Shown in pieces: positions 4,339 to 28,554 of a DNA stretch of 64,000 bases. Positions within the stretch are counted from its first letter, which is position 1, and the number at the start of each line of letters is the position of its first letter. Source of the DNA: an uncultured Clostridia bacterium (GTDB lineage: Bacteria; Bacillota; Clostridia; Christensenellales; CAG-138); the NCBI GenBank assembly GCA_937900325.1, contig CALCEX010000070.1, forward strand, positions 15,122 to 79,121. The letters are read 5' to 3'. Made by a program: the position numbers and the translations under genes. Below the pieces are notes generated by a model that was not told where the DNA came from, made no database searches, and worked only from the letters and a program-made list of their open reading frames with translations.

Positions 4339-6069
4339 TTATACGTCTATTATCTGATAATTATAGAGGTTCGCGTACATTCCGCCAAGGGCCATAAGCT
4401 CCCTGTGGCTGCCCCTCTCGGCTATGCCGGAGGGCGTAAGCACAACTATTTCGTTGGCGCTCTTTATGGTGGAGAGCCTATGGGCAACGATTATGCAGGT
4501 GCGCCCCTTCGCAAGCTCAAACAGCTCCTGCTGTATCTCCATCTCGGTCTGGTTATCCAGCGCTGAGGTGGCCTCGTCCAGTATCAGTATGCCGGGATCC
4601 TTGAGGAATACCCGGGCTATGGATATGCGCTGCTTCTGCCCGCCGGAAAGCTTCACGCCCCGCTCGCCCACCTGGGTGTCGTAGCCGTCCTCCAGCGTCA
4701 TTATGTAATCGTGGATGCGCGCCTTCTTCGCTGCCTCTATTACCTGCTGCTCCGTGGCGTCAAGATCGCCGTAGCGTATGTTGTCGGCTATGCTGCCGTC
4801 AAAGAGGAATACGTCCTGGGCGACTATGCCTATATTGCGCCTGAGGGATACCCTCGTGAAGTCCCTTATGTCCGTGCCGTCTATGGTTATGCGGCCCGCA
4901 TCGGGATCGTAAAAGCGGGGTATGAGGTTGCACAGCGTGGTCTTTCCGCCGCCGGAGGGGCCGACGAGAGCCACCGTCTCCCCCGCGGGTATATGAAGGT
5001 CCAGGTGCTTTATCACCTTCTCCGCTCCCCTCGCGTCGCTGTTTTTATACCTGAAGGATACGTCCTCAAAGGCGATATCCCCAAGGAGCCTGCCCGCGTC
5101 CACCGCGCCCGGCGAATCCTTCTCAACGGGCTCGTCCATTATCTCGGTAAACCGCTTGAAGCCCGTCGTACCCGATTGAAGCTGCTCGAACATATTGACT
5201 ATCTTACGCACGGGAGTGAAGAAGTTGGATACCATCAGCAGAAAAGCGGTGTATTCGCCGGCGTTTATGCTGCCCTTAAAGAAGAACAGCCCGCCGAAGA
5301 GGAGTATCGCAAGGTATGTAAGGTCCATCAGCAGCTCCGCCTCGGTAAAGAAGCGCGCCATGGCCCAATAATATTTGCTCCGTATGCCGGTGAGCTGGCG
5401 GTTAAGCGCGTCAAAGAGCGTGAGCTCGTGCTCCTCGCCGGTATATGCCCGGGATACCCGAACGCCTGATATGGCGGTGCCTACGTTGGCGTTTATCTCA
5501 CCCATCTTTACCCGGGTGGCCTGAGAGGCGCGGTTGAGCCCAAGGCGGGCCCTTGCCGTTATGAAAACGGTGCAGGGCAGCATCACGAGCAGTATCAGCG
5601 CGAGCGGCAGGCATATCGTGGAAAGCCACGCCACCGCCCCTATGAGCATCACCACCGAGAGGAATATATCCTCCGGCCCGTGGTGCGCAAGCTCGGATAT
5701 TTCCTGAAGATCGTTGGTCATCCGGCTCATCAGCACGCCGCTTTTGTTATCGTCAAAGAAGCTTATGGGCAGCCTTTCCAGGTGGGCGAACATCTCCCGG
5801 CGCATATCCGCCTGTATCCGCACGCCCACGATATGCCCCCAGTAATCCACTATGAAGGTCATTGCCGCCTTTAAAAGGTATATCCCCAGCAGCACGCAGC
5901 ACCACAGCACCAGCCGCCGCATATCCCTCTCCGGCACATAGACGTTTATTATATCCTTGGCTATTATCGGATAAAACATATTGCACGCCGATATTATCAG
6001 CGCGCAAAGCATATCCGTATAGAAAAGCCTTTTATGGGGTTTGTAGTAGGATGCAAACCGTTTGAACAT
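4339..6069 (-). CDS. ABC transporter ATP-binding protein/permease (type I exporter)
   Basis: 576 aa. N-terminal 6-TM domain plus an NBD with GPSGGGKTT, LSGGQKQR and ILILDEATSALD. RBS AAGGGAGAG lies before ATG 6069. Confidence 0.9.
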   Translation of the reverse strand: MFKRFASYYKPHKRLFYTDMLCALIISACNMFYPIIAKDIINVYVPERDMRRLVLWCCVLLGIYLLKAAMTFIVDYWGHIVGVRIQADMRREMFAHLERLPISFFDDNKSGVLMSRMTNDLQEISELAHHGPEDIFLSVVMLIGAVAWLSTICLPLALILLVMLPCTVFITARARLGLNRASQATRVKMGEINANVGTAISGVRVSRAYTGEEHELTLFDALNRQLTGIRSKYYWAMARFFTEAELLMDLTYLAILLFGGLFFFKGSINAGEYTAFLLMVSNFFTPVRKIVNMFEQLQSGTTGFKRFTEIMDEPVEKDSPGAVDAGRLLGDIAFEDVSFRYKNSDARGAEKVIKHLDLHIPAGETVALVGPSGGGKTTLCNLIPRFYDPDAGRITIDGTDIRDFTRVSLRRNIGIVAQDVFLFDGSIADNIRYGDLDATEQQVIEAAKKARIHDYIMTLEDGYDTQVGERGVKLSGGQKQRISIARVFLKDPGILILDEATSALDNQTEMEIQQELFELAKGRTCIIVAHRLSTIKSANEIVVLTPSGIAERGSHRELMALGGMYANLYNYQIIDV

Positions 6070-6100
6070 ATCTCTCCCTTTCGGTTTTTCAAAGGAGGGG

Positions 6101-6754
6101 CTACGCCACTATGTCTCCCTGATGGGTAATAAGGCTGGCGTCGTACACGCCCTCCACCCGGAGGAACTTCTCTACGAAGCCCGTCTCGTTCTCCCTGAGG
6201 CGCAGCTCCATGGTAAGCTCTATGCTGCCGGGGCGCACTACCTTGCTCTTGAGCCTCGCGTTGGGCAGCTGCTTGGTCATCTTTCGTATGGCGTCGCCCG
6301 CCGCCTCGCTGTAATGAAGTATCAGCAGGTAGCTCTGCGCGCCGCCCTTTCCCCTTGAGCCGGAGATGAGCAGCACGAATACGCCTATCAATATGCCGGC
6401 GATCACGGCCACGTCATAGAACTTTGTGCCAACGGCGATGCCCTCGCCCACCGCCCAGAATATGAAGGCGGTATCCAGCGGATCCTTTATGGCGGTGCGG
6501 TAGCGGACGATGGACAGCGCGCCCACCATGCCGAGGCTGAGGGTCAGGCTGTTGTTTATCAGCATCAGCATCAGCGACGTGACGACCGTCATCATTACCA
6601 GCGCCATTCCGTAGGTGCGGGAATACATAACGCCGCTGAAGGTCTTTTTATATATGAACCATACATAAAGGCCCATGAGCAGGCCGACTGTCAGCGTAAG
6701 TATCACCTGAACGGGGTTCATGGTAATGGTCAAAAGATCGGAAAAGCTTATCAT
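6101..6754 (-). CDS. DUF4956 domain membrane protein
   Basis: 217 aa. Four or five TM segments and SIVRYRTAIKDPLDTAFIFWAV, which I recall as DUF4956-like. Immediately downstream of the VTC-domain gene. Confidence 0.7.
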   Translation of the reverse strand: MISFSDLLTITMNPVQVILTLTVGLLMGLYVWFIYKKTFSGVMYSRTYGMALVMMTVVTSLMLMLINNSLTLSLGMVGALSIVRYRTAIKDPLDTAFIFWAVGEGIAVGTKFYDVAVIAGILIGVFVLLISGSRGKGGAQSYLLILHYSEAAGDAIRKMTKQLPNARLKSKVVRPGSIELTMELRLRENETGFVEKFLRVEGVYDASLITHQGDIVA

Positions 6755-6763
6755 GTGTTCCTC

Positions 6764-7489
6764 CTAAAACTCAAACTTTCTGCATATGCAATACTTGCTC
6801 ACGGCGCTGCGCACGTTGGAGTCTATCTGCAAAAGCTCCCTTATATAGCCCGGCAGATAGTTGTTGAACTTTACCTCCAGCACAAGGTCGCCGTCCGTTA
6901 TCACGGGATAGGTGGGCTGCGTCATGTCGAATATGTCGGTCCCCCGATAGGCGGTGCGTATATCCTTATCGAAGGTTATGCGGACGTCCTCCACGGGATA
7001 AACATACGCCTCCCTGGTATAATCCACCATCACCCGGGGGCGCAGGCATTTTGTCGCGAACTCCGCGAACATCCGCCTGGCGAAGGGCTCCTTTCGGGAG
7101 AGGAGGAAGGCGTAGTCCCCCCTTATAAGGCTGTCGCACTCCGCGCGGCTCAATCGTATGGACTGCTTCGCTATGAAGCTGCCCTCCTTGTGCTTGCACT
7201 CGAGCTTTATAACGTCGTCCTTCCCGTTGTATACCCGTATGCGGAACTTGTCCCTCTCGTCCACTCCGGAGAGCTTTTCCCAGAGGGCGTCGTCAAAGGG
7301 GCTGTCGAAATACAGGCTCCTTATAAAGTACTGCCCGCCGTTTCTTACGGCGTTTTCGTCCTGCCGTATGCAGGAGCGCAGCCTTCTTGAAAGTATCTCG
7401 TAGTCTCCCCGGTTGATGTAGTATTTCAGCTCGTGGCGGTATTGTACGGGCCGCCTGCTCGATCGCGCCGGCCTTCTGGCCTTTTCCAT
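6764..7489 (-). CDS. VTC (polyphosphate polymerase / triphosphate-tunnel) domain protein
   Basis: 241 aa. Begins ...YRHELKYYI, the bacterial VTC-domain signature as I recall it. Its start lies 1 nt from the CotH stop. Confidence 0.7.
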   Translation of the reverse strand: MEKARRPARSSRRPVQYRHELKYYINRGDYEILSRRLRSCIRQDENAVRNGGQYFIRSLYFDSPFDDALWEKLSGVDERDKFRIRVYNGKDDVIKLECKHKEGSFIAKQSIRLSRAECDSLIRGDYAFLLSRKEPFARRMFAEFATKCLRPRVMVDYTREAYVYPVEDVRITFDKDIRTAYRGTDIFDMTQPTYPVITDGDLVLEVKFNNYLPGYIRELLQIDSNVRSAVSKYCICRKFEF

Positions 7490-7490
7490 T

Positions 7491-10463
7491 TTAGCCGAAC
7501 ACCTCCTTCATGTAGGAATCGCTCAGGCCCAGGTTGCTCTTTAGCTGCCGCTTGAGCTCCTCCGGCCGCTTCGCGGCGAAATCCTTCAGCTTGCTTATCT
7601 CGCTCTGGAAGCCCTCGTAGGTCCCAAGGTTGGTCTTGGGCTGCCTGACCCCCATAAACGTATCCTTATTGAATTTTTCCCGCTCCCGCTTTATCTCGGG
7701 CTCCACATAGCCGTAAAGCTCGTCTATGAGCGCCGTTACCCGCTCGGGGGCGAAGGCTGTATCGAGAAGCTCCGCGAAGCGGCGGCAGAAGCTGTCCTTC
7801 CAGCCGCTGTTCTGAAGCATGGCGGCAAACAGCTTTGCGGAGCACACGTCGCTGGGCGTCTTGCCCATGCGGAAAGCCAGCGTGTCGTGGCTCGGGCTCT
7901 GGAAGCCCCAGCAGAAGTCGTAGAATATGAACTTCCACTTGCCTCCCTTTAGGCGGTAGTACTGGAAATTGTAGGTATCCGTGTTGCCGTTGTATATCTC
8001 GGCTATCATGTAATCCCGGAAGCTTTCAACGTCCATTCGCTCCGCGACGTAGTTATAGGCCTCGGCCGAGGAAAGGTCGTGGGTGGTGGCGTACTCGTAA
8101 AGGCTTACCCAGTCCGAATTGTCGCCGTAGCTGCTCTGCTTGAAGCCCTTGCCTATGGCCATGTCCACGTTGTTTTCGGTATTCTCATGCTGCGCCACGA
8201 AAAAGCGGTTGCGCTTTTCCTTGAGGAAGTACACGCCCCAGTATTCGCCGTTGAGGTAAAGCACCGTGGGGCGGTAGGCCTGGTAGAGTATCTTTACGTC
8301 GGTTCCCTCCAGCAGGCCGCTTGCCAGCTCGTCCCTTATCTTGCTGCGGTTCTGATCCTGCGCGCCGGCCCTGAGCACCACCGCCTTGTATTCCGTATAC
8401 GGGCGGTTTTCAAAGAAGGGGTACTCCATCGAGCCCTTGCCGTATTCCTTGCGGGCTATCACGTTAAAGCCCTTCTGGGCCCTGCCCCTTCCGAAGCTTC
8501 CGGCTATCCTTATGCCCACGTTCTGGGTGAAAACCTGCTTCCCGCTCTCATCAAAGAGGGAGAAGGCCGCGGGCTTTTCCCAAAGGGTATCCACCTGCTC
8601 CTCGGTTGCGAACTTGGCCTGATAGTAGGTTGCGGATTTGAGGGTGTCCGCGTATGCCGCCGCGTCCGGGTCAAACTGGTCGCCGGTGGCGTATATGCCG
8701 GTCTCGCTGTTCCAGAGGTTGTCCGGGTCGGTAACGAGCGTCACCACAGGCAGCGCGTGATCGACCCCGTCGCTTTTGAAGAGGTAGGTGGCGGTCGCCA
8801 CGTCGCCGGAAAGGTAACCGTCCTTGTATGCCGCGGCCCGTATGACGGTGTTTTTGCTTATCGTCAGCTCGCCGCCGTATACCTCGGAGCCGGCGTTGGG
8901 GGTGGTGCAGTCGGTGGTGTAGCGTATGGTCTCCCCTTCCCCTGCGGTTATCGCCACGGTAACGGTATCATCGTATATGCCGGGGGTAACGCTGAAGGCG
9001 GGCTGCTGGGTTATGCCCTCATACCCCTTGCCGTTCTGCGCGCCGGGGGTGGGGTCCGCATAGTAAAAGCGCTGGTCCGAGCCGTCCCTGCCGTAGCTCT
9101 GGCCGGACCTCATGCGGCCCGCGGACAGCTTGTCTATGAGCTTTCCGCCGGGATCGAAGAGGAACAGCGTCTCGCCCGTTGAGCTTATGCTGAAATTAAG
9201 CTGGAGATTTTTTTTTTGAGCCTTGTCGGCGCTGCCCGTAGCGTAAAGCAGCAGATACTCGCCCGGCTCTATGGATATATCCGGGAACACCCACTTCGCG
9301 GGGTTCTTGGGGTTGTTTGATATGCCGTAGCCCGCAAGGCTGACGGCGCTCCCCGTGGAATTGTACAGCTCCACCCAGTCGGAGGCGACGCTGCCCGTGG
9401 AGCCGCCGAACTCGCTTATGTACACCCCGCTCAGGGGCAGCCTGTTGGCGGCGTCAAAGGCGGAGTAGCCCGCGCCGGTGTTGGGGTAGCCGGGGCTTGG
9501 CTGGGAACTGGGCTGGAACTCGCCCGTGCCGTCGGGTATGCGCGCCATGGAGACGTCCGTCTCCTGGCTTTTAAAGGAATAGCTGTCTATTATCCTTCCG
9601 GCCTTATTGGCGATCACCACATCCTCGCCGTAGGAGCGGAGGCCGAAGGGGGCGTGCAGCTCGCCGTTCTGCAAGCCCTCGTTTCCGGAGCAGAACACCA
9701 CAAGGTAGCCCTTGGCGGCTATTGTAGTGCCGTCGGGGAAGCGGTATTTCATGGGCTGGGAAAGGTTATCCGATATGCCGAAGCCTGATACGTCCATATC
9801 CGCATCCGTTGAATTGTAAAGCTCTATCCAGTCGGAATAATTGCCGAAGCTGTCGCAGAGGGTGGTGGCGTTGCTGGCCATGAACTCGTTGATATAGAGG
9901 CCTATGTCCTCCGTCTCCTTAAGGCTCGCCTCGTATTCCGCCATGCCCTCCTCGGTCTTGGGGTAGCCGGGGCAGGGCTTTGCCTGCGTCCATACATCGC
10001 CCTCCCGGCGCAGCACCATGCCGGAGTCCACCGCGCTGAGCACGGCGGTATCCAGCGGCCTGCCGGAAGCGTCAAACAGCACCGCCTCCTCGCCCGCGCT
10101 GAGCTTGAAGGGGGCGTGCATATCATCCTCCGCCTCGCCGCTGCACCAGACCACCACATAGGCGCCCGGCTCCAGCACCGTGCCCGCGGGGAACACGTAC
10201 TTTGCGCCCTCGAGCAGGCTGTCGGACAGGCCGTAGCCGGATATGTCCGCCTTTTCGGATGAGCCGTTGTGCAGCTCTATATAGTCCGGGTAGCCGCCCA
10301 GGTTATCCGGCACGGAGCCCTTGTTGGATATCATTATCTCGCTGAGCGCGACGGCGTCCGCCGGAGCCTTTGTGCTGCCTTCCTTAAGGCTTATCAAAAA
10401 TACGGCCAATATGACGATAAGCGCCAGGCTTATCAGTATCGACCTGAGCCGTTTCTTTCTCAA
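7491..10463 (-). CDS. CotH kinase family protein with N-terminal TM anchor, three lamin-tail (LTD) domains and a Chb/Hex-C-like beta domain
   Basis: 990 aa, TTG start. Three repeats of the pattern (I/V)SE(I/F)...DWIELYN...(I/V)SG(Y/F)G(L/I)SD. The C-terminal 450 aa are CotH-like (YLNGEYWGVYFLKEK, IAEIYNGNTD). Confidence 0.8.
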   Translation of the reverse strand: MRKKRLRSILISLALIVILAVFLISLKEGSTKAPADAVALSEIMISNKGSVPDNLGGYPDYIELHNGSSEKADISGYGLSDSLLEGAKYVFPAGTVLEPGAYVVVWCSGEAEDDMHAPFKLSAGEEAVLFDASGRPLDTAVLSAVDSGMVLRREGDVWTQAKPCPGYPKTEEGMAEYEASLKETEDIGLYINEFMASNATTLCDSFGNYSDWIELYNSTDADMDVSGFGISDNLSQPMKYRFPDGTTIAAKGYLVVFCSGNEGLQNGELHAPFGLRSYGEDVVIANKAGRIIDSYSFKSQETDVSMARIPDGTGEFQPSSQPSPGYPNTGAGYSAFDAANRLPLSGVYISEFGGSTGSVASDWVELYNSTGSAVSLAGYGISNNPKNPAKWVFPDISIEPGEYLLLYATGSADKAQKKNLQLNFSISSTGETLFLFDPGGKLIDKLSAGRMRSGQSYGRDGSDQRFYYADPTPGAQNGKGYEGITQQPAFSVTPGIYDDTVTVAITAGEGETIRYTTDCTTPNAGSEVYGGELTISKNTVIRAAAYKDGYLSGDVATATYLFKSDGVDHALPVVTLVTDPDNLWNSETGIYATGDQFDPDAAAYADTLKSATYYQAKFATEEQVDTLWEKPAAFSLFDESGKQVFTQNVGIRIAGSFGRGRAQKGFNVIARKEYGKGSMEYPFFENRPYTEYKAVVLRAGAQDQNRSKIRDELASGLLEGTDVKILYQAYRPTVLYLNGEYWGVYFLKEKRNRFFVAQHENTENNVDMAIGKGFKQSSYGDNSDWVSLYEYATTHDLSSAEAYNYVAERMDVESFRDYMIAEIYNGNTDTYNFQYYRLKGGKWKFIFYDFCWGFQSPSHDTLAFRMGKTPSDVCSAKLFAAMLQNSGWKDSFCRRFAELLDTAFAPERVTALIDELYGYVEPEIKREREKFNKDTFMGVRQPKTNLGTYEGFQSEISKLKDFAAKRPEELKRQLKSNLGLSDSYMKEVFG

Positions 10464-10552
10464 TTCGTTTTCCTCTTTATTATCTGTATCGGCACATAGC
10501 CATGATCATTGTATCATAAAAGAGCGGATAATGCTATGAAGTAATGGTGAAT

Positions 10553-10585
10553 AAAAAAGCCTCCTTCGTTGATACGAAGGAGGGC
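10553..10585 (-). terminator. Intrinsic terminator after the alpha/beta hydrolase gene
   Basis: On the - strand: GCCUCCUUCG-uaucaa-CGAAGGAGGC followed by UUUUUU. Confidence 0.75.
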
Positions 10586-10597
10586 GGTTATTATTAT

Positions 10598-11941
10598 TTA
10601 CGCCTCCGGCTGTATGGCCGGGATATATTCAAGCGTGGCCGCGATGACCTTTTCCGCCTTTTCCTCATGGAGGAGGTGCCCCGCGTTGCGCATTGTGGCA
10701 AAGCCGGCGTAGGGCATCGCCGTATGGTACGGCTCCGAGCCGTCGCCCTGGCGCCACTTATCCTCGCTGCCCTGAAGCATCAGCACGGGGGCCTCAAGGG
10801 AGCGGAGCCTCGAAACAACGCCCTCATCGTCAAAGTTGTGGAAGGAGGCCCGCAGCGCCCAGCGGGATTCGCGGTCGGATATGGTCTTGTAGTATTCGCC
10901 AACTACCTCCGGGCTCATCATGCGCGCAAGGTCGAAATAGCACTCCGAAAGCACCTTTTCCACCGTGCGCATACCGTAAAGCATGGAGGCCACGCCGCCC
11001 AATATGCTGCTGTCCATGAGCTTTATGGCAAGCGGCATCTCGGGTGAAATGCCTCCCGGGGCTATGAGCATCATCTTGCCTACCCTGTCCGGATTATCCA
11101 GCGCGAAGCGCAGCGCATATGCGGAGCCCATGGAAAACGCCATTATATGGGCCGACTGCACGCCTATGGCGTCCATGAAAAGCCCCAGCGTCATGGCCTG
11201 CTCCTCAACGGTATAGCTGAAGTTCTCCGGCCTTGAGGAATAGCCGTGGCCCAGCAGGTCTATGGCTATAACCCGGTAATTAAGGCTGAGGCGGGAGAAC
11301 ATATTGCGCCAGGTATAGAAGGACTGGCCCACGCTGTGTATGAGTATCAGCGGCTCGCCGTTGCCTTCTTCGATATAGTGTATGCGGGCGCGCTCCGTCC
11401 TCGGGCCCTCGATCTCCGGCTCCTGATATTCCTCTTCGTCCTCCTCGGGCTGCTCTGCCCGGGCGGTCTTTGGCCCGTCGTCAAACATGGCGGCTACGCG
11501 GCGCGCTTCCTCCGCCGCCGCCCTGCGGCGGGCGCGGGCCTTTTCGGCCTCCTCTTCCTCGTCCAGCTCCTCGTCCAGCTCCTCGTCGAGCTCCTCGTCG
11601 AGCTCCTCGTCCAGCTCCTCGTCCGATTTGGCGGCGCGCTTCCTGCCGAACAGGCCGCCCCTGCGGGACCTTCTGCGCTCCTCCTCTTCCTCCGCGTCCA
11701 GCTCCGCCTCGATCTCGCTGTCCATATCGTCATAACCGTCGTCATCGTCATAGTCAGCCCTTTTGCGCATAAAGGAAGCCTTCCTGTCCTTCTTTTCCTT
11801 CCTGTCCTTCTTTTCCGGCTTCTTTCTGGCTTTCTTTGGGGGTTCCTCGTCCTCGATCCGGGCTATGGGCAGCTCGATCTGAGCAAAATTGCCTACGTAT
11901 TCGGTATTAACGAACTTTTTAACTTCCAGCGAAATAGCCAC
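10598..11941 (-). CDS. Alpha/beta hydrolase with a roughly 190-aa charged low-complexity N-terminal region
   Basis: 447 aa. GTG start preceded by GGAGGA. The C-terminal 250 aa form an alpha/beta fold (HSVGQS..., nucleophile elbow FSMGS, late His). The N-terminus is K/E/D/R-rich with (DEEL)n. Confidence 0.8.
   Translation of the reverse strand: MAISLEVKKFVNTEYVGNFAQIELPIARIEDEEPPKKARKKPEKKDRKEKKDRKASFMRKRADYDDDDGYDDMDSEIEAELDAEEEEERRRSRRGGLFGRKRAAKSDEELDEELDEELDEELDEELDEEEEAEKARARRRAAAEEARRVAAMFDDGPKTARAEQPEEDEEEYQEPEIEGPRTERARIHYIEEGNGEPLILIHSVGQSFYTWRNMFSRLSLNYRVIAIDLLGHGYSSRPENFSYTVEEQAMTLGLFMDAIGVQSAHIMAFSMGSAYALRFALDNPDRVGKMMLIAPGGISPEMPLAIKLMDSSILGGVASMLYGMRTVEKVLSECYFDLARMMSPEVVGEYYKTISDRESRWALRASFHNFDDEGVVSRLRSLEAPVLMLQGSEDKWRQGDGSEPYHTAMPYAGFATMRNAGHLLHEEKAEKVIAATLEYIPAIQPEA
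11557..11624. repeat. 12-bp tandem repeat, about 5.7 copies (CCTCGTC[C/G]AGCT), encoding (DEEL)n in the hydrolase
   Basis: Read directly from the sequence. Units start at 11557, 11569, 11581, 11593 and 11605, with a partial unit at 11617. Confidence 0.9.
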
Positions 11942-19261: not shown

Positions 19262-19486
19262 CTTCTCTGCCCGCCTGTAATACAAAAATTTTACCTGCTG
19301 ATTTTACCATAAAATCAGGGATTTTTCAATGGCTATTATTATAATAAGAAGAAAGCATTGCAAAAATGCATAAATATGCGTAAGATGCATATCGCGGCGC
19401 CCCACAAAAATATTTGCGCCGCCGTTGAAATATAGTATAATAAATAAAAATATAAACGGTATCATCCATTCCAGGGAGGGACGAAT

Positions 19487-20593
19487 ATGCGCTTTACAGT
19501 TGATACGGCTGAGCTCAACGCCGCCGTTGCCACGGTTTCAAAGGCGCTGGGAGTAAAATCCTCAGTTGGCATATTGGAGGGCATATATGCCGAGGCCATA
19601 GGCGATACGCTGCTGCTCAGGTGTACCGACCTTTCGCTCCAGATAGAGGCTACGCTCAACGTGAATATCCAGAAGGAGGGGGCCTGCGTGCTGCCCGGGC
19701 GGCTCTTTTCCGAGCTTGTAAGGAGGCTGCCCGCGGAGGAGACGCTGCTCAGCCTCAATAAGAGCACGCTGCTTATCGAAAGCGGCAGGGCCACCACCAC
19801 CATGCAGGTGGAAAACGCCAAGGATTACATCTCCATGCCGGAGGTCAGCCGGGAGTTCTCCGTGGCCATATCCAAGGCGACCCTGAAGAGCATGATACGC
19901 CAGTGCATATTCGCGACGGCCCAGGACGATTCCAAGCCCATTCTCCGTGGCGTGCTCATAGAGCTCGACGGCGGCCGCATGAGCATGGTAGCCCTTGACG
20001 GATACCGTCTCGCCATGCGCACCGAGACGGTCACGGTATCGGGCGAGGCGAAGAGCGCGGTCATCCCCGCCCGCGGCCTTCTGGAGATAAGCCGCATACT
20101 GGACGACAGCGACGAGACCATCAGCCTGGTATTCTCCGCCACCCATGTAATGATAGACATGGGCTATACCCGCATAATCACCCGCCTTATGGACGGCGAT
20201 TTCATACGCTACCGCCAGATACTGCCGGAGGGCTGCACCACCCATGTGCGGGTGAACCGCACAGAGCTTCTGGACAGCATTGAGCGCGTCTCCCTCATGG
20301 CCCGGGAAAGCAGGAAGAACCACATAAAGTTCTCCTTTGAGGATTCTCAGCTCACCATCACCGCCAACAGCGAGATAGGCGCCAGCAAGGAAATAGTCAA
20401 TATCGACCGCATGGGCAGCGATATAGACATTGCCTTCAACGCAAAGTATTTCAGCGACGTGCTGAAGGTGCTGGAGGACGAATACGTCTGCCTGGATATG
20501 AACACCAACATAAGCCCCTGCGTGGTAAAGCCCGAGACCGGCGACGCATACTATTACCTCATCCTCCCCGTAAGGCTGTTTTCGGGGAATTGA
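19487..20593 (+). CDS. dnaN: DNA polymerase III beta subunit (sliding clamp)
   Basis: 368 aa. MRFTVDTAELNAAV... with three-domain clamp length. RBS GGGAGGG. Confidence 0.95.
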   Translation: MRFTVDTAELNAAVATVSKALGVKSSVGILEGIYAEAIGDTLLLRCTDLSLQIEATLNVNIQKEGACVLPGRLFSELVRRLPAEETLLSLNKSTLLIESGRATTTMQVENAKDYISMPEVSREFSVAISKATLKSMIRQCIFATAQDDSKPILRGVLIELDGGRMSMVALDGYRLAMRTETVTVSGEAKSAVIPARGLLEISRILDDSDETISLVFSATHVMIDMGYTRIITRLMDGDFIRYRQILPEGCTTHVRVNRTELLDSIERVSLMARESRKNHIKFSFEDSQLTITANSEIGASKEIVNIDRMGSDIDIAFNAKYFSDVLKVLEDEYVCLDMNTNISPCVVKPETGDAYYYLILPVRLFSGN

Positions 20594-20599
20594 CGCTTT

Positions 20600-20678
20600 A
20601 TTCCTTCTTTCCTCCTTCTTTCTCTTTTCTTTTCAGGAGAAAAGAAAAGCAGAAAGAAGCAAAGAGAAAAGAAAAGCC
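20600..20678 (+). repeat. Polypyrimidine/polypurine hairpin element, copy 1 (3' of dnaN)
   Basis: The 20-mer CTTCTTTCTCTTTTCTTTTC at 20615-20634 is identical to those at 25671-25690 and 30452-30471. It is followed by AGGA and the purine arm GAAAAGAAAAGCAGAAAGAAG, then ...GAAAAGAAAAGCC. Confidence 0.9.
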
Positions 20679-20694
20679 AGAGTTAAATAAATAT

Positions 20695-20730
20695 AAAAAT
20701 AAAGGAACGGTCTCAGCCGTTCCTTTTGCT
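20695..20730. terminator. Bidirectional intrinsic terminator between dnaN and the noc-like gene
   Basis: GGAACGG-tctcag-CCGTTCC, with an A-run upstream and a T-run downstream. Confidence 0.75.
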
Positions 20731-20739
20731 TTGTTTGCT

Positions 20740-21573
20740 TTATTCGCCCGTTATCTTTATGTGTATATCCACCCCGTTGTGCAGGTCCTCCTGCTCCACC
20801 TCCACGTTCATGCCGGATTCCCTGAGCACCCCGATAGCCGAATTGACGGTGTTCATGAAAAGCCGGTAATCCCGCACCTGTCGTATTATGGCGGGGCGGG
20901 GGGCCGCGCCGGGGCGCTTTTCGTCGTACATTTTATCGAGGGTCTTTTCCACCAGCCTTTCGGTATCCTTTACCGAGAGGTTCTTTTCCGCCGTGCGCTT
21001 TATTACGGCAAGCTGCGCCTGCTCGTCCCTGAGCTTTAGCACCGCCCGGGCGTGGCGCTCCGAAAGGCCGTTTTCCCGCAGCGCCGACACCACCTCAGGG
21101 GACAGCCGCAGAAGCCGCAGCTTATTGGCTATGGAGGACTGGCTCTTGCCCAGCCGCTTTGCAAGCTCCTCCTGGGTGAGGTTGTAGTTGTTGAGCAGGG
21201 CGTAGTAGCACTGCGCCTCCTCCATATAGTTGAGCTCCTCCCGCTGAAGGTTCTCTATGAGGGCCACCATGGCGGAGGCTTCCTCCTGCATGGAGTCCTC
21301 TACTATGCAGGTGACCTTCTCCATGCCGAGGGACTTGCAGGCGCGCAGGCGGCGCTCCCCCGCCACCAGCTCATAGCCGGAGCCGCTGCTTCTTACCACC
21401 AATGGCTGTATCAGCCCCACCTGGCTTATGCTCTGGGCAAGCTCTGCTATGGTCTCGTCGTCAAATGTCGCGCGGGGCTGGTTTGGGTTCGGGACTATTT
21501 TTTCAACGGGTATTTCCAGCAGCCTGCGCTGGCTTTCCGTAGTCCGGGGACGAAGTGTAAATTCAAAGGACAT
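20740..21573 (-). CDS. noc: ParB/Noc family protein (nucleoid-occlusion-like ParB paralog)
   Basis: ORF 20740..21654. Start set at ATG 21573 (RBS AGGAGA), which avoids overlap with rsmG. ParB box LVAGERRLRA and an HTH. Sits downstream of rsmG, as noc does in Bacillus. Confidence 0.8.
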   Translation of the reverse strand: MSFEFTLRPRTTESQRRLLEIPVEKIVPNPNQPRATFDDETIAELAQSISQVGLIQPLVVRSSGSGYELVAGERRLRACKSLGMEKVTCIVEDSMQEEASAMVALIENLQREELNYMEEAQCYYALLNNYNLTQEELAKRLGKSQSSIANKLRLLRLSPEVVSALRENGLSERHARAVLKLRDEQAQLAVIKRTAEKNLSVKDTERLVEKTLDKMYDEKRPGAAPRPAIIRQVRDYRLFMNTVNSAIGVLRESGMNVEVEQEDLHNGVDIHIKITGE

Positions 21574-21634
21574 TATGCGTTCTCCTGATAAATTTGTTTT
21601 TTCTAAAACGGCCGTCAGCCATTTCCGCGAAACC

Positions 21635-22324
21635 CTAAAGGGGCTTCTTGTCAACGGTTCCCGCCTTGCGGGGGTATGCCTTTGGGGTGGGCTTATGCTT
21701 TGTGAGTATGACCACGCAGCGCTCCCCCCACTCCGCCGGGTATGACCTTATCTCCCCGGCGCAGCATAAAAGCTCCAGCGCCCTTTCGCCCTCCCTCAGC
21801 TCCGCGGCGGCCTGAGGGCCCTTATACATGAGGGACCTGCCCCCTACCCTGAGGAAGGGCACGGTGTATTCCGCAAGGGGGGACACCCGGGCTACCGCGC
21901 GGGACACGGCGATGTCGAATTTTTCCCGAAGGGCGGGGCTCCTGCCTGCGTCCTCCGCACGGGCGTGTATGCATTCCGCGTTTATATCGAGCTCCTTGCA
22001 TACCTCCCTTAAAAAGCCTACGCGCTTATTGAGCGAATCGAGCAGCGTCACCCTCGCGTCCGGCCTTGCTATGGCTATGGGCAGCCCGGGGAAGCCCGCG
22101 CCCGTGCCGACGTCTATGATTTTCGCCCCCTTTGGAATAAGCTCGAGGGGCAGCAGGCTGTCCGCAAAGTGCTTTTTCAGTACCTCCTCCTCGCCGGTTA
22201 TGGCGGTAAGGTTCATGCGGCTGTTCCAGTCCGTTAGCATATCGTAATAGCGGCAGAGCTTTTGGGCCTGCTCCTCCGTCAGCCCCGCCGCGGGTATGGT
22301 ATTTATTACGGTCTGTATATCCAT
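21635..22324 (-). CDS. rsmG: 16S rRNA (guanine527-N7)-methyltransferase
   Basis: 229 aa. GidB family (DVGTGAGFPGLPIAI). Directly downstream of mnmG. Confidence 0.92.
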   Translation of the reverse strand: MDIQTVINTIPAAGLTEEQAQKLCRYYDMLTDWNSRMNLTAITGEEEVLKKHFADSLLPLELIPKGAKIIDVGTGAGFPGLPIAIARPDARVTLLDSLNKRVGFLREVCKELDINAECIHARAEDAGRSPALREKFDIAVSRAVARVSPLAEYTVPFLRVGGRSLMYKGPQAAAELREGERALELLCCAGEIRSYPAEWGERCVVILTKHKPTPKAYPRKAGTVDKKPL

Positions 22325-24196
22325 CTATTTTCCCTCCAGCAGCCTGAGCTGTATCAGCAGCACCCCTATATCCGCCGGGGACACGCCGCTTATGCGCCCG
22401 GCCTGGCCTATGCTTCTCGGGCGTATGGCGGAAAGCTTCTGCCTTGCCTCAAGGCGGAGCCCCTCCATATGGGCGTAATCCACCCCCTCCGGTATGAGCA
22501 TATCCTCCTGCTGCTTGAGCCTTTCCACCTGCTGCTTCTGTTTTTCTATGTAGCCCTCATAATGGGCGGATATTTCCACCTGCTCCCGCGCCTCGTCCGA
22601 AATTTCCGGAAGGCCGGATACCCGCATGAGGTCGGTATAGCTTATGCCCTCCCTGCGCAGCACGTCCATGAGCCTTGCGCCGCTTTTGAGCCCGCCGCCG
22701 CCCTTTTCTGAGAGCAGCTCCATAAGCCCCTCCTCCGGGCGCGCCGTCTTGTTCAACGCGGCCATGGCCTTTTCCATATCGCTTTGCTTTTCCATCAGCC
22801 TTGCGTAGCGCTTTTCGGATATGAGCCCCGTCCTTCTCGCCTTTTCCGTAAGCCGCAGGTCGGCGTTGTCCTGCCTGAGCAGCAGCCGGTATTCGGCGCG
22901 GGAGGTCATCATCCTGTAAGGCTCGTTTGTGCCCTTTGTCGCGAGGTCGTCCACCAGTACCCCAATATATGCGTCTCCGCGGGAAAGTATGAAGGGCTCC
23001 TCGCCCTTTAAGTAAAGGGCGCAGTTTATGCCGGCGTAAATGCCCTGGGCGGCGGCCTCCTCATAGCCGGAGCTGCCGTTTATCTGCCCCGCGAAGTACA
23101 GCCCGGGTATATCCTTGCTGCCGAGGGCGGTATTCAGCGTGTTGGGGTCTATGCAGTCGTACTCTATGGCGTAGCCCGCCCGCATTATCTCCGAGCGCTC
23201 GAGCCCCGGTATGGTGCGCAGCATTTCCACCTGAACGTCATAGGGCAGACTGGTGCTCATTCCCTGAACGTACATCTCGTCCGTGGAAAGCCCCTCCGGC
23301 TCGATGAAAAGCTGGTGCCTGTCCTTATCCGCGAACCGCTTTATCTTATCCTCTATGCTGGGGCAGTACCTTGTGCCGGTGCCGGTAACAAGGCCGGAAT
23401 ACATGCTGCTCCTGTGGATATTGTTCAGTATTATCTCGTGGGTGCGATGGTTGGTATAGGTAAGGTAGCAGGGCTGCTGCGGCCTTTCCCCCTTATCGCT
23501 CAGGAATGAAAAGCAGGGAGAGGGCACGTCGCCGTACTGGGGCTCCATCCTTTCAAGATCAAGGCTGCGCCTGTTTACCCTTGGGGGGGTGCCGGTCTTG
23601 AAGCGGCGGAGCCTGAAGCCAATATCCTCAAGGCTCGCCGAGAGCGCGTTTGAGCGGAGCATGCCCGAAGGCCCCGACTCCGTAACGTAGTCGCCTATGA
23701 GCACGCGGCTTTTAAGGTAAACCCCCGTGGCCACAACTATGCCCCGGCAGCGGTACTCTATTCCGCCGCCCGCGATTATGCCCGCCACGCGGCCATTCTG
23801 AAGCAGTATCCTCTCGCATTCGCCCATCCTGAGATCCAGCAGCGGCTCCCGCTCCAGCGCGCGCTTCATCCTCTCGTGATACCGGCGCTTATCCATCTGC
23901 GCCCGGAGGGAATGAACGGCGGGGCCCTTGCCGGTGTTGAGCATACGTATCTGAATGAAGGTATCGTCCGCCGCCGCGCCCATTTCACCCCCCAGCGCAT
24001 CCAGCTCCCGCACAAGGTGTCCCTTTGAGGTGCCGCCTATGGCCGGGTTGCAGGCCATGAGGGCCACGCTGTCAAGGTTCATGGTAAGGCAGAGGGTCTT
24101 AAGCCCCATGCGGGCGCAGGCGAGCGCCGCCTCGCAGCCCGCGTGACCCGCGCCCAGCACCGCCACGTCGTATATTCCGCCCAGATATGTGTTCAT
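22325..24196 (-). CDS. mnmG: tRNA uridine 5-carboxymethylaminomethyl modification enzyme MnmG (GidA)
   Basis: 623 aa. FAD-binding N-terminus DVAVLGAGHAGCEAA, with GidA length and a C-terminal helical domain. Confidence 0.96.
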   Translation of the reverse strand: MNTYLGGIYDVAVLGAGHAGCEAALACARMGLKTLCLTMNLDSVALMACNPAIGGTSKGHLVRELDALGGEMGAAADDTFIQIRMLNTGKGPAVHSLRAQMDKRRYHERMKRALEREPLLDLRMGECERILLQNGRVAGIIAGGGIEYRCRGIVVATGVYLKSRVLIGDYVTESGPSGMLRSNALSASLEDIGFRLRRFKTGTPPRVNRRSLDLERMEPQYGDVPSPCFSFLSDKGERPQQPCYLTYTNHRTHEIILNNIHRSSMYSGLVTGTGTRYCPSIEDKIKRFADKDRHQLFIEPEGLSTDEMYVQGMSTSLPYDVQVEMLRTIPGLERSEIMRAGYAIEYDCIDPNTLNTALGSKDIPGLYFAGQINGSSGYEEAAAQGIYAGINCALYLKGEEPFILSRGDAYIGVLVDDLATKGTNEPYRMMTSRAEYRLLLRQDNADLRLTEKARRTGLISEKRYARLMEKQSDMEKAMAALNKTARPEEGLMELLSEKGGGGLKSGARLMDVLRREGISYTDLMRVSGLPEISDEAREQVEISAHYEGYIEKQKQQVERLKQQEDMLIPEGVDYAHMEGLRLEARQKLSAIRPRSIGQAGRISGVSPADIGVLLIQLRLLEGK

Positions 24197-24335
24197 ACGT
24201 TAAATTACCTCTTATTTTCTTCCATGCTACATTATAGCAGAAAACCCGCCCTGTGGGAAATATTTTTATTTCCCGATGCGGTATAGTATAATATATCCGT
24301 TATTTCAGGCAAGCGCATCAGGAGAAAAACACGAT

Positions 24336-25652
24336 ATGACCGACACCATTTACGCCCTTTCCACCCCCGTCGGCGGGGCGATAGCCGTTATACGCATAAG
24401 CGGCCCGGGTACCCTTCCGGCGCTTCGGGCGGTATTCAACGGCAGGATAGAGCACCGCTACGTTTCCCACGGCAGCATAACCGGGGCGGACGGCGCGCCG
24501 ATAGACGACGCCATGGCGGTATACTTCCGCGCCCCCAACAGCTACACCGGGGAGGACATGGCGGAGCTTTACATCCACGGCGGCTACGCCGTATCCAAGG
24601 GGGTGCTGTCCCGGCTTTCCGAGCTGCCCCTTCGCCCCGCCGGGCCGGGGGAATTCACGCGGCGGGCGTTTATGAACGGCAAGCTGGATCTTGCCCGGTC
24701 CGAGGCGGTAATGGACCTTATCAACGCCTCCTCCGCCCGCTCCGCCTCCTCGGCGCTGGAGCAGCTTCAGGGCGCGCTTTCCCGGCGCATAGAGTCGGTC
24801 GAGCGGGAGCTTATAGACCTGCTCTCCGGCATAGACGCGGCGATAGATTATCCAGAGGAGCTGGAGGAGGACGTATTCTCCGCCCTGCCCTCCGGAATAC
24901 GCTCGGCAAAGGCCGAGGTGGATTCCCTCATATCCGGCGGCATGGCCTCAAGGATGATACGGGAGGGGGCGCGCATAGCCATATTAGGAAGGCCCAACGC
25001 GGGCAAAAGCTCGCTTTTCAACGCCATGCTGGGGGAGGACCGCGCCATAGTCACCCCGGAGGAAGGCACCACCCGCGACATATTGGAGGGGACGCTGCTG
25101 ATAAACGGCATAACCGCCCGCCTTTTCGATACGGCGGGCCTGCGGGAGGCGGGCTCCGCCGCGGAAAGCATAGGCATATCCCGCGCGCGGGAGATAGTGG
25201 ATAAGGCGGATCTTCTGCTCATTGCCATGGACGGCGGCGTGGAGGCCACAAATGAGGAGCGGCGGCTGCTCTCCTCCCCCGGGAGAAAGCTTGCGGTGAT
25301 ATGCAAAAGCGACGTTTCGGAGGGCGACAGCGCCTTCGCCCTCGCGGGGGAATACGGCGTGGAGGCCATAGGCGTGAGCGCGGTCACGGGCGACGGTGTG
25401 GCGGCGCTCATAGACCGCGTTGCGGAGCTTATCGCGCCGGAATGCGAAAGCGCCCTCGTCACAAACAGCCGCCATATAGCTGCGCTTCGGGAATGCTCCG
25501 CTGCGCTCTCCTCCGCCCTTCAGACACAGGAGGCGGACTGCGCGGCGACAGACCTGCGCGCAGCCCTTATCGCGCTGGGCGAGATCACCGGCAGAAGCGT
25601 GGACGCGGACGTTGTGGACAGGATATTCTCCCGCTTCTGCGTGGGGAAGTGA
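24336..25652 (+). CDS. mnmE: tRNA modification GTPase MnmE (TrmE)
   Basis: ORF 24276..25652. ATG 24336 is preceded by AGGAGA. MTDTIYALSTP..., G-domain GRPNAGKSSLFN / DTAG, and the C-terminal FCVGK motif. Confidence 0.95.
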   Translation: MTDTIYALSTPVGGAIAVIRISGPGTLPALRAVFNGRIEHRYVSHGSITGADGAPIDDAMAVYFRAPNSYTGEDMAELYIHGGYAVSKGVLSRLSELPLRPAGPGEFTRRAFMNGKLDLARSEAVMDLINASSARSASSALEQLQGALSRRIESVERELIDLLSGIDAAIDYPEELEEDVFSALPSGIRSAKAEVDSLISGGMASRMIREGARIAILGRPNAGKSSLFNAMLGEDRAIVTPEEGTTRDILEGTLLINGITARLFDTAGLREAGSAAESIGISRAREIVDKADLLLIAMDGGVEATNEERRLLSSPGRKLAVICKSDVSEGDSAFALAGEYGVEAIGVSAVTGDGVAALIDRVAELIAPECESALVTNSRHIAALRECSAALSSALQTQEADCAATDLRAALIALGEITGRSVDADVVDRIFSRFCVGK

Positions 25653-25670
25653 CGGTAATTTTATTTACCT

Positions 25671-25790
25671 CTTCTTTCTCTTTTCTTTTCAGGAGAAAAG
25701 AGTAAAGAAGCAAAGAGAAAAGAAAAGCCCAGGGGAAACAATAAAAGAAAATAGAAATCGCTGAGAAATCCAACGGGAAACGATAATAAG
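25671..25790 (+). repeat. Polypyrimidine/polypurine hairpin element, copy 2 (3' of mnmE), long form
   Basis: Identical 20-mer at 25671-25690. Purine arms run to 25729, followed by the module CAACGGGAAACGATAATAAG, which is shared with copy 3. Confidence 0.9.
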
Positions 25791-25803
25791 AACCGGGTAC
25801 AGT

Positions 25804-25835
25804 AAAAGGACGGCGACTTGCCGTCCTTTTGTTTT
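25804..25835. terminator. Bidirectional intrinsic terminator between mnmE and jag
   Basis: AAAA-GGACGGC-gactt-GCCGTCC-TTTTGTTTT. Confidence 0.8.
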
Positions 25836-25845
25836 ATATTATCAA

Positions 25846-26838
25846 TTATTCTTCGCTGCTTTTCGGGTAGACGACCACCCGGCGGTTGGGCTCCTCGCCC
25901 TCGCTGCGCGTCGCCACATATGGGTTGTTCTGGAGCGTGGCGTGCAGCACCCTGCGCTCGTAGGGATTCATGGGCTCCAGCGTGCGGGCCCGTCCCGTGG
26001 CCTTTACCTGATTGGCTATCTTCCTGGCAAGGCGGGCAAGGGTCTCCTCCCTCTTCTCCCGGTATCCCTCGGTGTCTATGGATATGCGGGTGTAGCCGTC
26101 CTGCTTGCGGTTGCGGTTGACCGCAAGGCTCGTCAGGTACTGCATCGCGTCCAGGGTCTCTCCCCTGTGGCCTATGAGCATTCCCGTGGTGGACTTGTCT
26201 ATGTAAAGGCGCACGCCATCCTCGCCTACATTGGCCAGCACCGTTCCCTCAACGCCCATGCGCTCCAGCATTCCCTTGACGAATTCCGCGGCAGGATTGC
26301 CCTCCGCCGCCTCCTCGGTGAAGCCCTCCGGCGGCTCCTTGGCCTGATAGCGGGGGCGGCTGTCGCGGTCTCTGCGGCCGCGGCCGCGCCTGTCCCTGCG
26401 TTCCCTTTGCTGCCTCTCGGCGGGATATTCTATCGTCTCCGTCTCGATCGTCTCGACAGTCTCGACAGTCCCGGCGGCTTCCTCCCGGTTTTCCTGCGGG
26501 GCGTGCTTTCCGTCGCCCGCTTCCTCCCGCTCGTCCCTGGGGCCGCGCTCTCTGCGGCCGCGCCTGTCGCGGTCGTTCCTTTGCTCCCTGCGGTCCCGGC
26601 GCTCCCGCCGCTCCCGCTCCTGATATTCAGGCCTGAGATATTCGGGAAGCAATATATCCTCCGGCTCCCTCTCTATGAGCTTTACTATGGCGGGCTTTGC
26701 GCCTATGCCCAGTATGCCCTTGCTTTCATGCTGTATTATGTCTATCTCCACCTCGTCTATGGAGATCCCCAGCTCCTTGAGGCCGTTGAATATCGCCTCG
26801 TCTATGGAGCGGCCCGTGGCCTGGATAGTTCTGAGCAT
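25846..26838 (-). CDS. jag: Jag/KhpB RNA-binding protein (Jag_N + KH + R3H) with a long R/E/D-rich insertion
   Basis: 330 aa. The N-terminus is Jag_N, and the C-terminus has an R3H-type ending (EPMNPYERRVLH). Downstream of yidC with a TAATG overlap. Confidence 0.9.
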   Translation of the reverse strand: MLRTIQATGRSIDEAIFNGLKELGISIDEVEIDIIQHESKGILGIGAKPAIVKLIEREPEDILLPEYLRPEYQERERRERRDRREQRNDRDRRGRRERGPRDEREEAGDGKHAPQENREEAAGTVETVETIETETIEYPAERQQRERRDRRGRGRRDRDSRPRYQAKEPPEGFTEEAAEGNPAAEFVKGMLERMGVEGTVLANVGEDGVRLYIDKSTTGMLIGHRGETLDAMQYLTSLAVNRNRKQDGYTRISIDTEGYREKREETLARLARKIANQVKATGRARTLEPMNPYERRVLHATLQNNPYVATRSEGEEPNRRVVVYPKSSEE

Positions 26839-27791: not shown

Positions 27792-27834
27792 CGATTTTCC
27801 TCGCTTTCGTCGGTTGATAAAAAAAAGTAAGTAG

Positions 27835-28086
27835 TTACCTGCCCCTGTATTCCATCCTTTTTGGCGGCACCGGATCCACCCCTCCCTTTGAAAAGGGGTT
27901 GCACCTGAGCACCCGCCAGACGGCAAGGCGCAGGCCCCTCCATGGGCCGTGCGTCCGTATCGCCTCGAGGGCGTAGGCGGAGCAGCTTGGCCGGTAGCGG
28001 CAGCAGGGAGAAAACCTGGGGGATATATACCTCTGGTAGCCCGTTATGAGGCTCTCCATGATCTGCTGCGCCCTTTCCCGGATCAT
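27835..28086 (-). CDS. yidD: Membrane protein insertion efficiency factor YidD
   Basis: 83 aa. YQRYISPRFSPCCRYRPSCSAYALEAI is the YidD signature. Confidence 0.92.
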   Translation of the reverse strand: MIRERAQQIMESLITGYQRYISPRFSPCCRYRPSCSAYALEAIRTHGPWRGLRLAVWRVLRCNPFSKGGVDPVPPKRMEYRGR

Positions 28087-28457: not shown

Positions 28458-28500
28458 CCTTATGCGTCCTTAGCAGTGGATCCGAAGGATCGTGTCGTTG

Positions 28501-28533
28501 AGAAAAAACTCACGGCAAGCTCAGCTTGCCGTG
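28501..28533 (-). terminator. Hairpin/terminator between rpmH and rnpA
   Basis: On the - strand: CACGGCAAGC-uga-GCUUGCCGUG followed by AGUUUUUUCU. Confidence 0.7.
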
Positions 28534-28554
28534 ACACTTGTCAAAGCGTATTTA

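Follow-up and report, generated by a model that had tools for sequence, protein, structure and literature searches.

Organization of the locus

We analyzed a stretch of 64,000 nucleotides (nt; hereafter the window, or 64-kb window) from contig CALCEX010000070.1 of an uncultured Clostridia bacterium, with a focus on three closely spaced genes on its minus strand that encode a CotH-family protein, a VTC-domain protein and a DUF4956 membrane protein. The CotH-family gene (7491..10463) starts with a TTG codon preceded by a AAAGAGGAAAA ribosome-binding site (RBS) and encodes 990 amino acids (aa). It is followed by the VTC-domain gene (6764..7489; 241 aa) and the DUF4956 gene (6101..6754; 217 aa). 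All three were identified from a list of open reading frames (ORFs) and by Pfam. A single nucleotide (7490) separates the first gene from the second, and 9 nt (6755-6763) separate the second from the third. These coordinates confirm the tight, single-strand arrangement given in a preliminary description of this DNA, and public assemblies independently call products of the same 990, 241 and 217 aa that are identical to the trio. The domains named in that description (CotH, three lamin-tail domains, VTC and DUF4956) were likewise all recovered above threshold in a Pfam search, in which matches were judged by bit score against the gathering threshold.

Similarity of the VTC protein to Vtc4

The VTC protein matched the Pfam VTC domain (PF09359) over its full length (130.4 bits versus a threshold of 23, E=1e-37). 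It consists of this domain alone, as no SPX domain, membrane segment or export signal was found in it. NCBIfam holds no model for VTC or DUF4956, and single-sequence searches of the PDB returned no match for any of the three proteins; profiles were required. A profile of VTC homologues matched the tunnel domain of Vtc4 (3G3Q, 5.9e-6), and a HMMER alignment of the VTC protein to Vtc4 paired K22 with K200, R83/R85 with R264/R266, E97/K99 with E279/K281, and E205/K207 with E426/K428. The conserved tunnel residues of the VTC protein are K22, R83, R85, E97, K99, R159, R170, E205, K207 and S231-K232. Those aligned with Vtc4, together with S231-K232-Y233, were invariant in homologues from 91% down to 27-36% identity. 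S231-K232-Y233 is the probable counterpart of Vtc4 S457-K458-F459. By this comparison the VTC protein appears to keep the residues that Vtc4 uses for binding ATP/Mn and for building polyphosphate. An AlphaFold model of the protein (predicted local distance difference test (pLDDT) 80.7, predicted template-modeling score (pTM) 0.78) was compared to the PDB using Foldseek. The 13 best matches were all Vtc4, Vtc2 or Vtc3 (best 4.8e-13), with the hydrolases ygiF (2e-8), CYTH proteins and thiamine triphosphatase ranking below the Vtc subunits.

Most tunnel enzymes are hydrolytic, and the residues at the tunnel center are common to Vtc4 and hydrolases such as AtTTM3 (PMC4641920), in keeping with an alternative in which the VTC protein is a tri-/polyphosphatase or another triphosphate-cleaving tunnel enzyme and the module consumes or senses polyphosphate or nucleotides. 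Hydrolytic tunnel enzymes carry a patch of four glutamates that is basic in Vtc4 (Martinez et al., PMC4641920). Strand 1 of the VTC protein reads R18-x-E20-x-K22, compared to R-x-T-x-K in Vtc4 and E-x-E-x-K in the hydrolases; thus, one glutamate of the acidic patch, E20, is present, and it is invariant. In contrast, the other mappable positions of the patch (AtTTM3 E2 and E171) are occupied by basic residues as in Vtc4 (R18 and K207); the comparison covers three of the four patch positions. The later strand, E205-x-K207, matches Vtc4 E426-x-K428. The invariant Ser-Lys pair, which probably corresponds to the catalytic K458 site of Vtc4, also speaks against hydrolysis, as does the ranking of all VTC subunits above every hydrolase by both sequence and fold. 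A hydrolytic role therefore strikes us as rather improbable. At the mappable positions the VTC protein appears Vtc4-like bar one glutamate, a pattern that favors a putative polymerase role.

The likeness to the eukaryotic VTC complex (Vtc4/Vtc3/Vtc1; 3G3Q, 7YTJ, 8I6V) lies in the fold of the tunnel domain, in its key residues, and in the pairing of a cytoplasmic polymerase, an activity only predicted for the window protein, with a membrane partner. Unlike that complex, the window protein has neither SPX nor the fused three-helix VTC membrane domain. Its membrane partner is instead a separately encoded, unrelated MgtC-like protein, and the predicted destination is the cell exterior and not the vacuole.

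An invariant membrane core in the DUF4956 protein

Pfam DUF4956 (PF16316) matched only the N-terminal half of the 217-aa protein (aa 30-129; 38.1 bits versus 30.6). In the predicted model, about five transmembrane (TM) helices (aa 14-132) precede a C-terminal ACT-like domain of beta-alpha-beta-beta-alpha-beta topology (aa 142-210). By the positive-inside rule, the N-terminus would lie outside the cell and the C-terminal domain in the cytoplasm. Usable fold matches came from the ACT-like tail only. The best of these in the PDB, the C-terminal domain of Mycobacterium tuberculosis MgtC (2LQJ), reached only E=2.4e-3 by Foldseek and was followed by ACT domains and Pseudomonas aeruginosa MgtC. The membrane part scored below threshold against Pfam MgtC (PF02308; 15.2 bits versus 31.4, E=0.029). 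The protein thus looks like a distant member of the MgtC type with an ACT-like tail, and DUF4956 has previously been interpreted as a set of MgtC-like TM helices with an ACT domain (PMC12345266). It appears to resemble the MgtC/SapB/YhiD family in layout, with about five predicted hydrophobic helices ahead of a small domain of the ACT type in the cytoplasm; similarity in sequence and fold is weak, and one source names a DUF4956 homologue 'YhiD'. It differs from that family in its sub-threshold Pfam score, in an invariant RxR…K…D of its own, and in its obligate pairing with VTC.

The DUF4956 family comprises 6428 representative clusters at E<=1e-3. Conservation was judged across 118 representatives with 27-68% identity to the window protein, and residues Y35, G75, G78-A-L-S-I82, R84, [F/Y]85, R86, K90, D94, F99, W100, G105 and G109 were invariant among them. 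The invariant core, SLGxxGALSI-x-R-[FY]-R-xxx-K-xxx-D-xxxx-FW-xxxx-G-xxx-G (aa 73-109; 6428..6538, minus strand), spans the end of TM3, a predicted cytoplasmic loop and TM4. It is laid out as a glycine-rich helix, three invariant basic residues in the loop, and a second glycine-rich helix. The region of the R84/R86/K90 motif could serve as a receiving site for a phosphate polymer or for the VTC enzyme.

The weak resemblance of DUF4956 to MgtC in both halves (Pfam E=0.029; 2LQJ as the top Foldseek match) is consistent with a different view, in which VTC and DUF4956 together sense or regulate from the cytoplasmic side, in the manner of MgtC and with an ACT ligand-binding tail. Local making or binding of short polyphosphate would then tune secretion of envelope material or polysaccharide with no polymer crossing the membrane, and CotH would be a conventional ATP-dependent kinase whose loading or activity precedes or accompanies its export. 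That MgtC proteins act through partner binding fits such a role. The pattern of conservation does not: what is invariant in DUF4956 is the membrane core, including its three basic residues, while little of the ACT-like tail is conserved. Moreover, a kinase that is exported would still require an extracellular phosphoryl donor.

An exported CotH protein with three lamin-tail domains

The CotH protein begins with MRKKRLRS followed by 18 hydrophobic residues and a possible A-P-A cleavage site, indicative of a signal anchor or signal peptide (aa 9-27; 10383..10439, minus strand). The remaining ~950 residues are therefore expected to lie outside the cytoplasm. The partner CotH proteins of Pseudobutyrivibrio, Planococcus and Nonomuraea likewise begin with a hydrophobic leader, and a crude scan of two samples found such a leader in 52/63 and 55/70 CotH ORFs, compared to 3/82 and 0/80 VTC ORFs. 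Pfam placed three lamin-tail domains (LTDs; E=5.3e-50) behind the leader of the window protein, at aa 35-148 (10020..10361), aa 188-297 (9573..9902) and aa 336-455 (9099..9458), all on the minus strand. The 'beta-sandwich' that the preliminary description placed beyond them proved to be an Ig-like domain of the CHB_HEX_C_1/Fn3_assoc type (aa 493-560; 8784..8987, minus strand). The three LTDs and the CHB_HEX_C domain probably tether the protein to the cell wall. We also considered the LTDs as charge-based binders of polyphosphate or DNA. This idea is unsupported, as all three are acidic (isoelectric point 4.1-5.1).

The CotH kinase-like domain (PF08757; aa 651-969; 7557..8513, minus strand) scored 143.3 bits against a threshold of 23.8 and covers positions 1-321 of the 322 in the profile. 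A profile built from 12 CotH domains, with identities down to 20%, matched Bacillus cereus CotH (5JD9, 2.4e-22). In that alignment, D829 (codon 7977-7979) falls on B. cereus D224, the equivalent of catalytic D228 in Bacillus subtilis, and D849 (codon 7917-7919) falls on B. cereus D247, the equivalent of B. subtilis D251. The equivalents of both aspartates were invariant in the 12 sequences, at identities as low as 20%. Mutation of D228 or D251 inactivates the B. subtilis kinase (PMC7821199).

The window protein thus shares the atypical kinase fold and both catalytic aspartates with the Bacillus spore-coat kinase (5JD9/5JDA). In contrast to that ~360-aa enzyme, an ATP-using kinase of the mother-cell cytoplasm with CotB/CotG as its substrates, it is 990 aa long, exported, equipped with four extra Ig-like domains and genetically linked to VTC and DUF4956. 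The case for a spore-coat kinase of the Bacillus kind, with neighbors that serve sporulation, is that the protein belongs to the CotH family and its host to the Clostridia. We consider this very improbable: an export signal and wall-type Ig domains are hard to reconcile with a protein that is assembled inside the mother cell, Streptococcus and Bifidobacterium carry the same trio but do not sporulate (PMC7112168), and no spore-coat genes lie near the trio, whose surroundings are housekeeping genes of the oriC region.

Co-conservation of the trio

The preliminary description had offered co-conservation across genomes as a check on the module, and two samples of loci bear on it. The close sample consisted of 80 genome loci from related Clostridia, anchored on the VTC protein at 55-91% identity. 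Contig-end cuts aside, the order CotH (with LTDs), VTC, DUF4956 was present on one strand in 79 of the 80. In the exception, L041, a VTC gene (7977-8675) that is 63% identical to the window VTC stands by itself, flanked by a CvpA-like gene and polA, with no DUF4956 or CotH gene within 8 kb. Flanking genes vary among these relatives. The genes for GyrA and the CCA-adding enzyme are present in some of them, a hydrolase gene lies next to the trio on its upstream side in ~30/80, on either strand, and an ABC exporter gene follows DUF4956 in just 22/80. We therefore rejected the exporter as a core fourth component.

The distant sample consisted of 80 metagenome loci seeded on the VTC protein of Planococcus, which is 36% identical to that of the window. 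DUF4956 directly followed VTC in all 76 assessable loci, and CotH adjoined the pair in 64 of 65. Two gene orders were found, VTC-DUF4956-CotH (V-D-C) in 40 loci and CotH-VTC-DUF4956 (C-V-D) in 21. The sole CotH-less pair among the 65 is that of L147 (7983-9400), which has no CotH gene in reach and a DUF2194 (PelA-deacetylase-like) gene upstream. Among annotated records, the trio is present on a plasmid of Pseudobutyrivibrio xylanivorans, within a glycosyltransferase/acyltransferase cluster, on a plasmid of Planococcus maritimus, and in Nonomuraea. Taken together, these findings show that the trio is co-inherited as a unit across Bacillota and Actinomycetota, far beyond chance. Since the linkage survives rearrangement and crosses phyla, it indicates function and not mere synteny.

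Polysaccharide genes lie beside the trio in 53 of the 80 distant loci and fall into two groups. The first comprises PelF, PelG, DUF2194 and DUF4832, while the second comprises a GH72-like protein of ~730 aa, a HEAT-repeat protein, a chitin-synthase-like GT2 and, often, a GGDEF protein. Such neighbors are consistent with the published description of Pel loci (PMC7112168). Neither the 64-kb window nor any of the 80 loci of the close sample contained a homologue of the genes of either group, and no polysaccharide-synthesis gene was found in the window; as a positive control, the search for Pel-type genes recovered PelF, PelG, DUF2194 and DUF4832 in 14-18 of the 80 distant loci. The window thus represents a standalone subtype, in which CotH has gained three LTDs and a CHB_HEX_C domain and polysaccharide genes are not nearby. 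The existence of this form indicates that the trio is a unit in its own right, able to be combined with different surface-polymer systems.

These neighborhoods bear on two of the alternatives. GGDEF genes occur as neighbors at 17 of the 80 distant loci, as might be expected if VTC and DUF4956 act as a cytoplasmic-side regulator; however, regulation does not explain why a cytoplasmic enzyme and an exported one are so strictly paired, and this in two different gene orders. Alternatively, the polymer may itself be the product, a polyphosphate layer at the surface that is either free or ionically cross-links cationic polysaccharides such as Pel, with CotH attaching or trimming the chain as a transferase or anchor instead of acting as a protein kinase. 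Several observations are compatible with such an output, including the Vtc4-like features of the VTC protein, the several Ig-like binding domains on CotH, and the embedding of the trio in loci for chitin-synthase-like GT2 products and for Pel, a cationic galactosamine/N-acetylgalactosamine (GalN/GalNAc) polymer (PMC7112168; PMC12345266). In contrast, the standalone form, in the window and its 80 relatives, has no polysaccharide genes within reach, the catalytic residues of CotH are of the phosphotransfer type with no precedent for a transferase in the family, and the LTDs are acidic. We therefore regard this alternative as unlikely.

Relation to previously described loci

The trio is not categorically new, since the literature already lists it as an accessory of Pel loci; the standalone form with an LTD-bearing CotH is the new part. 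Genes for CotH, a 'poly-phosphate polymerase', DUF4956 and DUF4832 have been reported as accessory genes contiguous with pelDEADAFG (Whitfield 2020, 10.1101/768473, PMC7112168), and occur in the pel loci of streptococci, clostridia and bifidobacteria (PMC7112168). In a 2025 mBio study, the Streptococcus intermedius genes SIR_1594 (CotH), SIR_1593 (VTC) and SIR_1592 (DUF4956) were deleted (PMC12345266). The statement of the preliminary description that it knew of no experimental work on the trio is thus incorrect. The trio was reported as not found outside Pel loci (PMC12345266), a claim that the window and its relatives contradict. Compared to the Pel-locus trio, that of the window has the same three families contiguous on one strand with CotH exported; it differs in that no pelDEADAFG or DUF4832 hydrolase gene is present in the 64-kb window or the 80 related loci, and in that its CotH carries three LTDs and CHB_HEX_C at the N-terminus, whereas the Pel-locus CotH carries FN3 at the C-terminus.

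A second kind of locus is exemplified by Clostridium perfringens NELoc-2, for which VTC, 'tubulin/FtsZ' protein and CotH genes are listed (Lepp et al., PMC2879425). We take the 'tubulin/FtsZ' protein, a predicted membrane protein of ~220 aa, to be a DUF4956 homologue. Such VTC-DUF4956-CotH-GH72-like-HEAT-GT2 clusters (NELoc-2; Planococcus plasmid, L086) contain the same trio, with a VTC protein that is 36% identical to that of the window and has identical tunnel residues. They differ from the window in the order V-D-C, in a short CotH (~470-500 aa) that lacks LTDs, and in the GH72-like, HEAT and chitin-synthase-like GT2 genes that always follow the trio and are all absent from the window. DUF2490 is a predicted outer-membrane beta-barrel; if this holds, Gram-negative versions of the system may add an outer-membrane component. 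In Bacteroides thetaiotaomicron (BT3498-99), a DUF4956 gene is listed beside a DUF2490 gene (PMC10434189).

Transcription unit and genomic setting

An MsbA-like ABC half-transporter gene (4339..6069, minus strand; 576 aa; Pfam ABC_membrane and ABC_tran) begins 31 nt (6070-6100) downstream of DUF4956, and its start is preceded by a GGGAGAG RBS. The position and separate RBS given for it in the preliminary description are therefore correct, while its low frequency among the close relatives marks it as a facultative neighbor. In the other direction, a hairpin followed by a T-run that resembles an intrinsic terminator (10560..10583, minus strand) ends the upstream alpha/beta-hydrolase gene and marks the upstream boundary of the trio unit. 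A candidate sigma-70-like promoter, TTCATA-16-TATGAT (10513..10540, minus strand), is located ahead of the CotH gene and was identified by consensus match only. The next strong terminator on the same strand (2343-2316) lies past the ABC, GpsA-like and TatD genes. Contigs assembled from gut RNA-seq runs, representing strains ~90% identical to that of the window, span the CotH/VTC (7095-7606), VTC/DUF4956 (6630-6811) and DUF4956/ABC (5876-6255) junctions, and break within the intergenic region at 10440-10597. These contigs provide modest support for co-transcription of the trio with the ABC gene, modest because DNA carry-over is possible. The half-transporter is thus probably co-transcribed with the trio here. 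The 3'-terminal part of the ABC gene contains a good sigma-70-like site, TTGGCG-17-TATAAT (4360-4388, minus strand), a short way before the GpsA-like gene; the downstream housekeeping genes may therefore be served by a separate promoter.

The window covers a replication-origin region (dnaA, rpmH, rnpA, yidC, jag, mnmE, mnmG, rsmG, parB, dnaN, recF, gyrB and gyrA), and gyrA is followed in series by genes for the CCA-adding enzyme, the hydrolase, the trio, the ABC exporter, the GpsA-like protein, TatD and MetNIQ. Its nearest public genomes are uncultured Clostridia, namely Christensenellales-like metagenome-assembled genomes from the gut. Within ~19400-30500, dnaA (28990-30429) and mnmE are on the plus strand, and rpmH, rnpA, yidD, yidC, jag, mnmG, rsmG and parB are on the minus strand. 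The dnaN gene (19487-20593) lies ~8 kb from dnaA and does not adjoin it. Both the minimum of the cumulative GC skew and the lowest G+C content (0.52) fall at 28-32 kb. PADLOC returned zero matches for the trio, and a defense-system reading was dropped on that result.

Two further ORFs were observed. The alpha/beta-hydrolase gene upstream of the trio (10598-11941, minus strand) encodes 447 aa, in the public calls as well, and has no recorded Pfam match. An N-terminal extension of ~190 aa in its product is extremely charged, with K/R-rich blocks followed by (DEEL)n/E-rich runs. A 610-aa ORF (49354-51186, plus strand), which is also called publicly, has no Pfam match and lies between the genes downstream of cysS and a DUF1385/prmC/prfA block.

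Discussion

The three proteins of the trio occupy different compartments: VTC is cytoplasmic, DUF4956 is integral to the membrane, and CotH is exported or membrane-anchored. This inside/membrane/outside arrangement, together with catalytic residues that are intact at both ends, is most readily accounted for by an envelope-spanning process. We tentatively suggest, at somewhat less than even confidence, that the trio is a self-contained module in which polyphosphate is synthesized by VTC, handed over to DUF4956 and used by CotH at the surface. The VTC protein, docked on a DUF4956 oligomer, would use ATP to build polyphosphate on the inner side of the membrane. The chain would be received at the invariant R84/R86/K90 loop, and DUF4956 would pass it across the membrane or hold it there, with the variable ACT-like tail possibly gating the transfer. 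Outside the cell, where ATP is scarce, CotH would act on a surface polymer or protein, and may take exported polyphosphate as its phosphoryl donor or as its substrate. Since most distant trios sit in loci for synthase-dependent exopolysaccharides (Pel, or GT2 with HEAT), the usual target is probably a surface glycan. The changes in Pel level and aggregation upon loss of the CotH or DUF4956 homologue in S. intermedius (PMC12345266) are in keeping with the module. The preliminary description had likewise proposed a VTC-like synthase and translocase feeding CotH. The topology, the Vtc4-like tunnel and the CotH aspartates fit that proposal, whereas the membrane component does not, as DUF4956 is unrelated to the membrane domain of Vtc1/Vtc4. 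A channel role for DUF4956 is therefore an analogy only.

Several points weigh against an envelope-spanning polyphosphate module. DUF4956 shows no similarity to the channel helices of Vtc1/Vtc4, and its model is of low confidence (mean pLDDT 63) and too weak for judging a pore. Its nearest relatives, the MgtC proteins, act as regulators and are not known to form channels. A search through the 150 best DUF4956 representatives turned up no natural fusion to VTC; the six longest of these (263-386 aa) lack a VTC domain, one of them being a citrate-synthase chimera. The VTC protein keeps, invariantly, the hydrolase-type glutamate E20 in strand 1, and the LTDs, being acidic, are not obvious binders of a polyanion. 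Characterized CotH uses ATP. A search of the open-access literature, which may miss subscription-only work, returned no measured activity for a bacterial VTC, a DUF4956 or an exported CotH protein. Lastly, in S. intermedius, loss of SIR_1592 (DUF4956) or SIR_1594 (CotH) halved aggregation in sputum medium and shifted the Pel level, in opposite directions for the two genes, while loss of SIR_1593 (VTC) visibly affected neither aggregation nor Pel (PMC12345266). A silent VTC deletion combined with opposite effects of the other two is not predicted by a simple linear pathway. This pattern looks regulatory, and it adds to the evidence for VTC and DUF4956 as a cytoplasmic-side sensor or regulator, which we regard as the strongest rival, albeit one with a limited chance of being correct.

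The finding of a standalone form shows that the trio is not a Pel-specific accessory and provides a clean, minimal system of three genes for heterologous reconstitution. In pathogens and gut commensals the trio is present in loci for Pel and GT2 biofilm polysaccharides, and its chemistry thus bears on the biofilm matrix. Exported CotH-like kinases are widespread, with their extracellular phosphoryl donor unexplained, and an envelope-spanning polyphosphate module offers a concrete and testable answer. PPK1 and PPK2 are the enzymes credited with making polyphosphate in bacteria. A functional polymerase of the Vtc4 type, present in thousands of bacterial lineages, would, if true, add a new pathway. 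The more specific proposal of a third, VTC-type route in bacteria, coupled to export via an MgtC-like protein and with its polyphosphate feeding an extracellular CotH kinase, is one that we hold as doubtful. If true, it would solve the donor problem of phosphorylation outside the cell, where there is no ATP, and the standalone LTD form would represent its minimal version.

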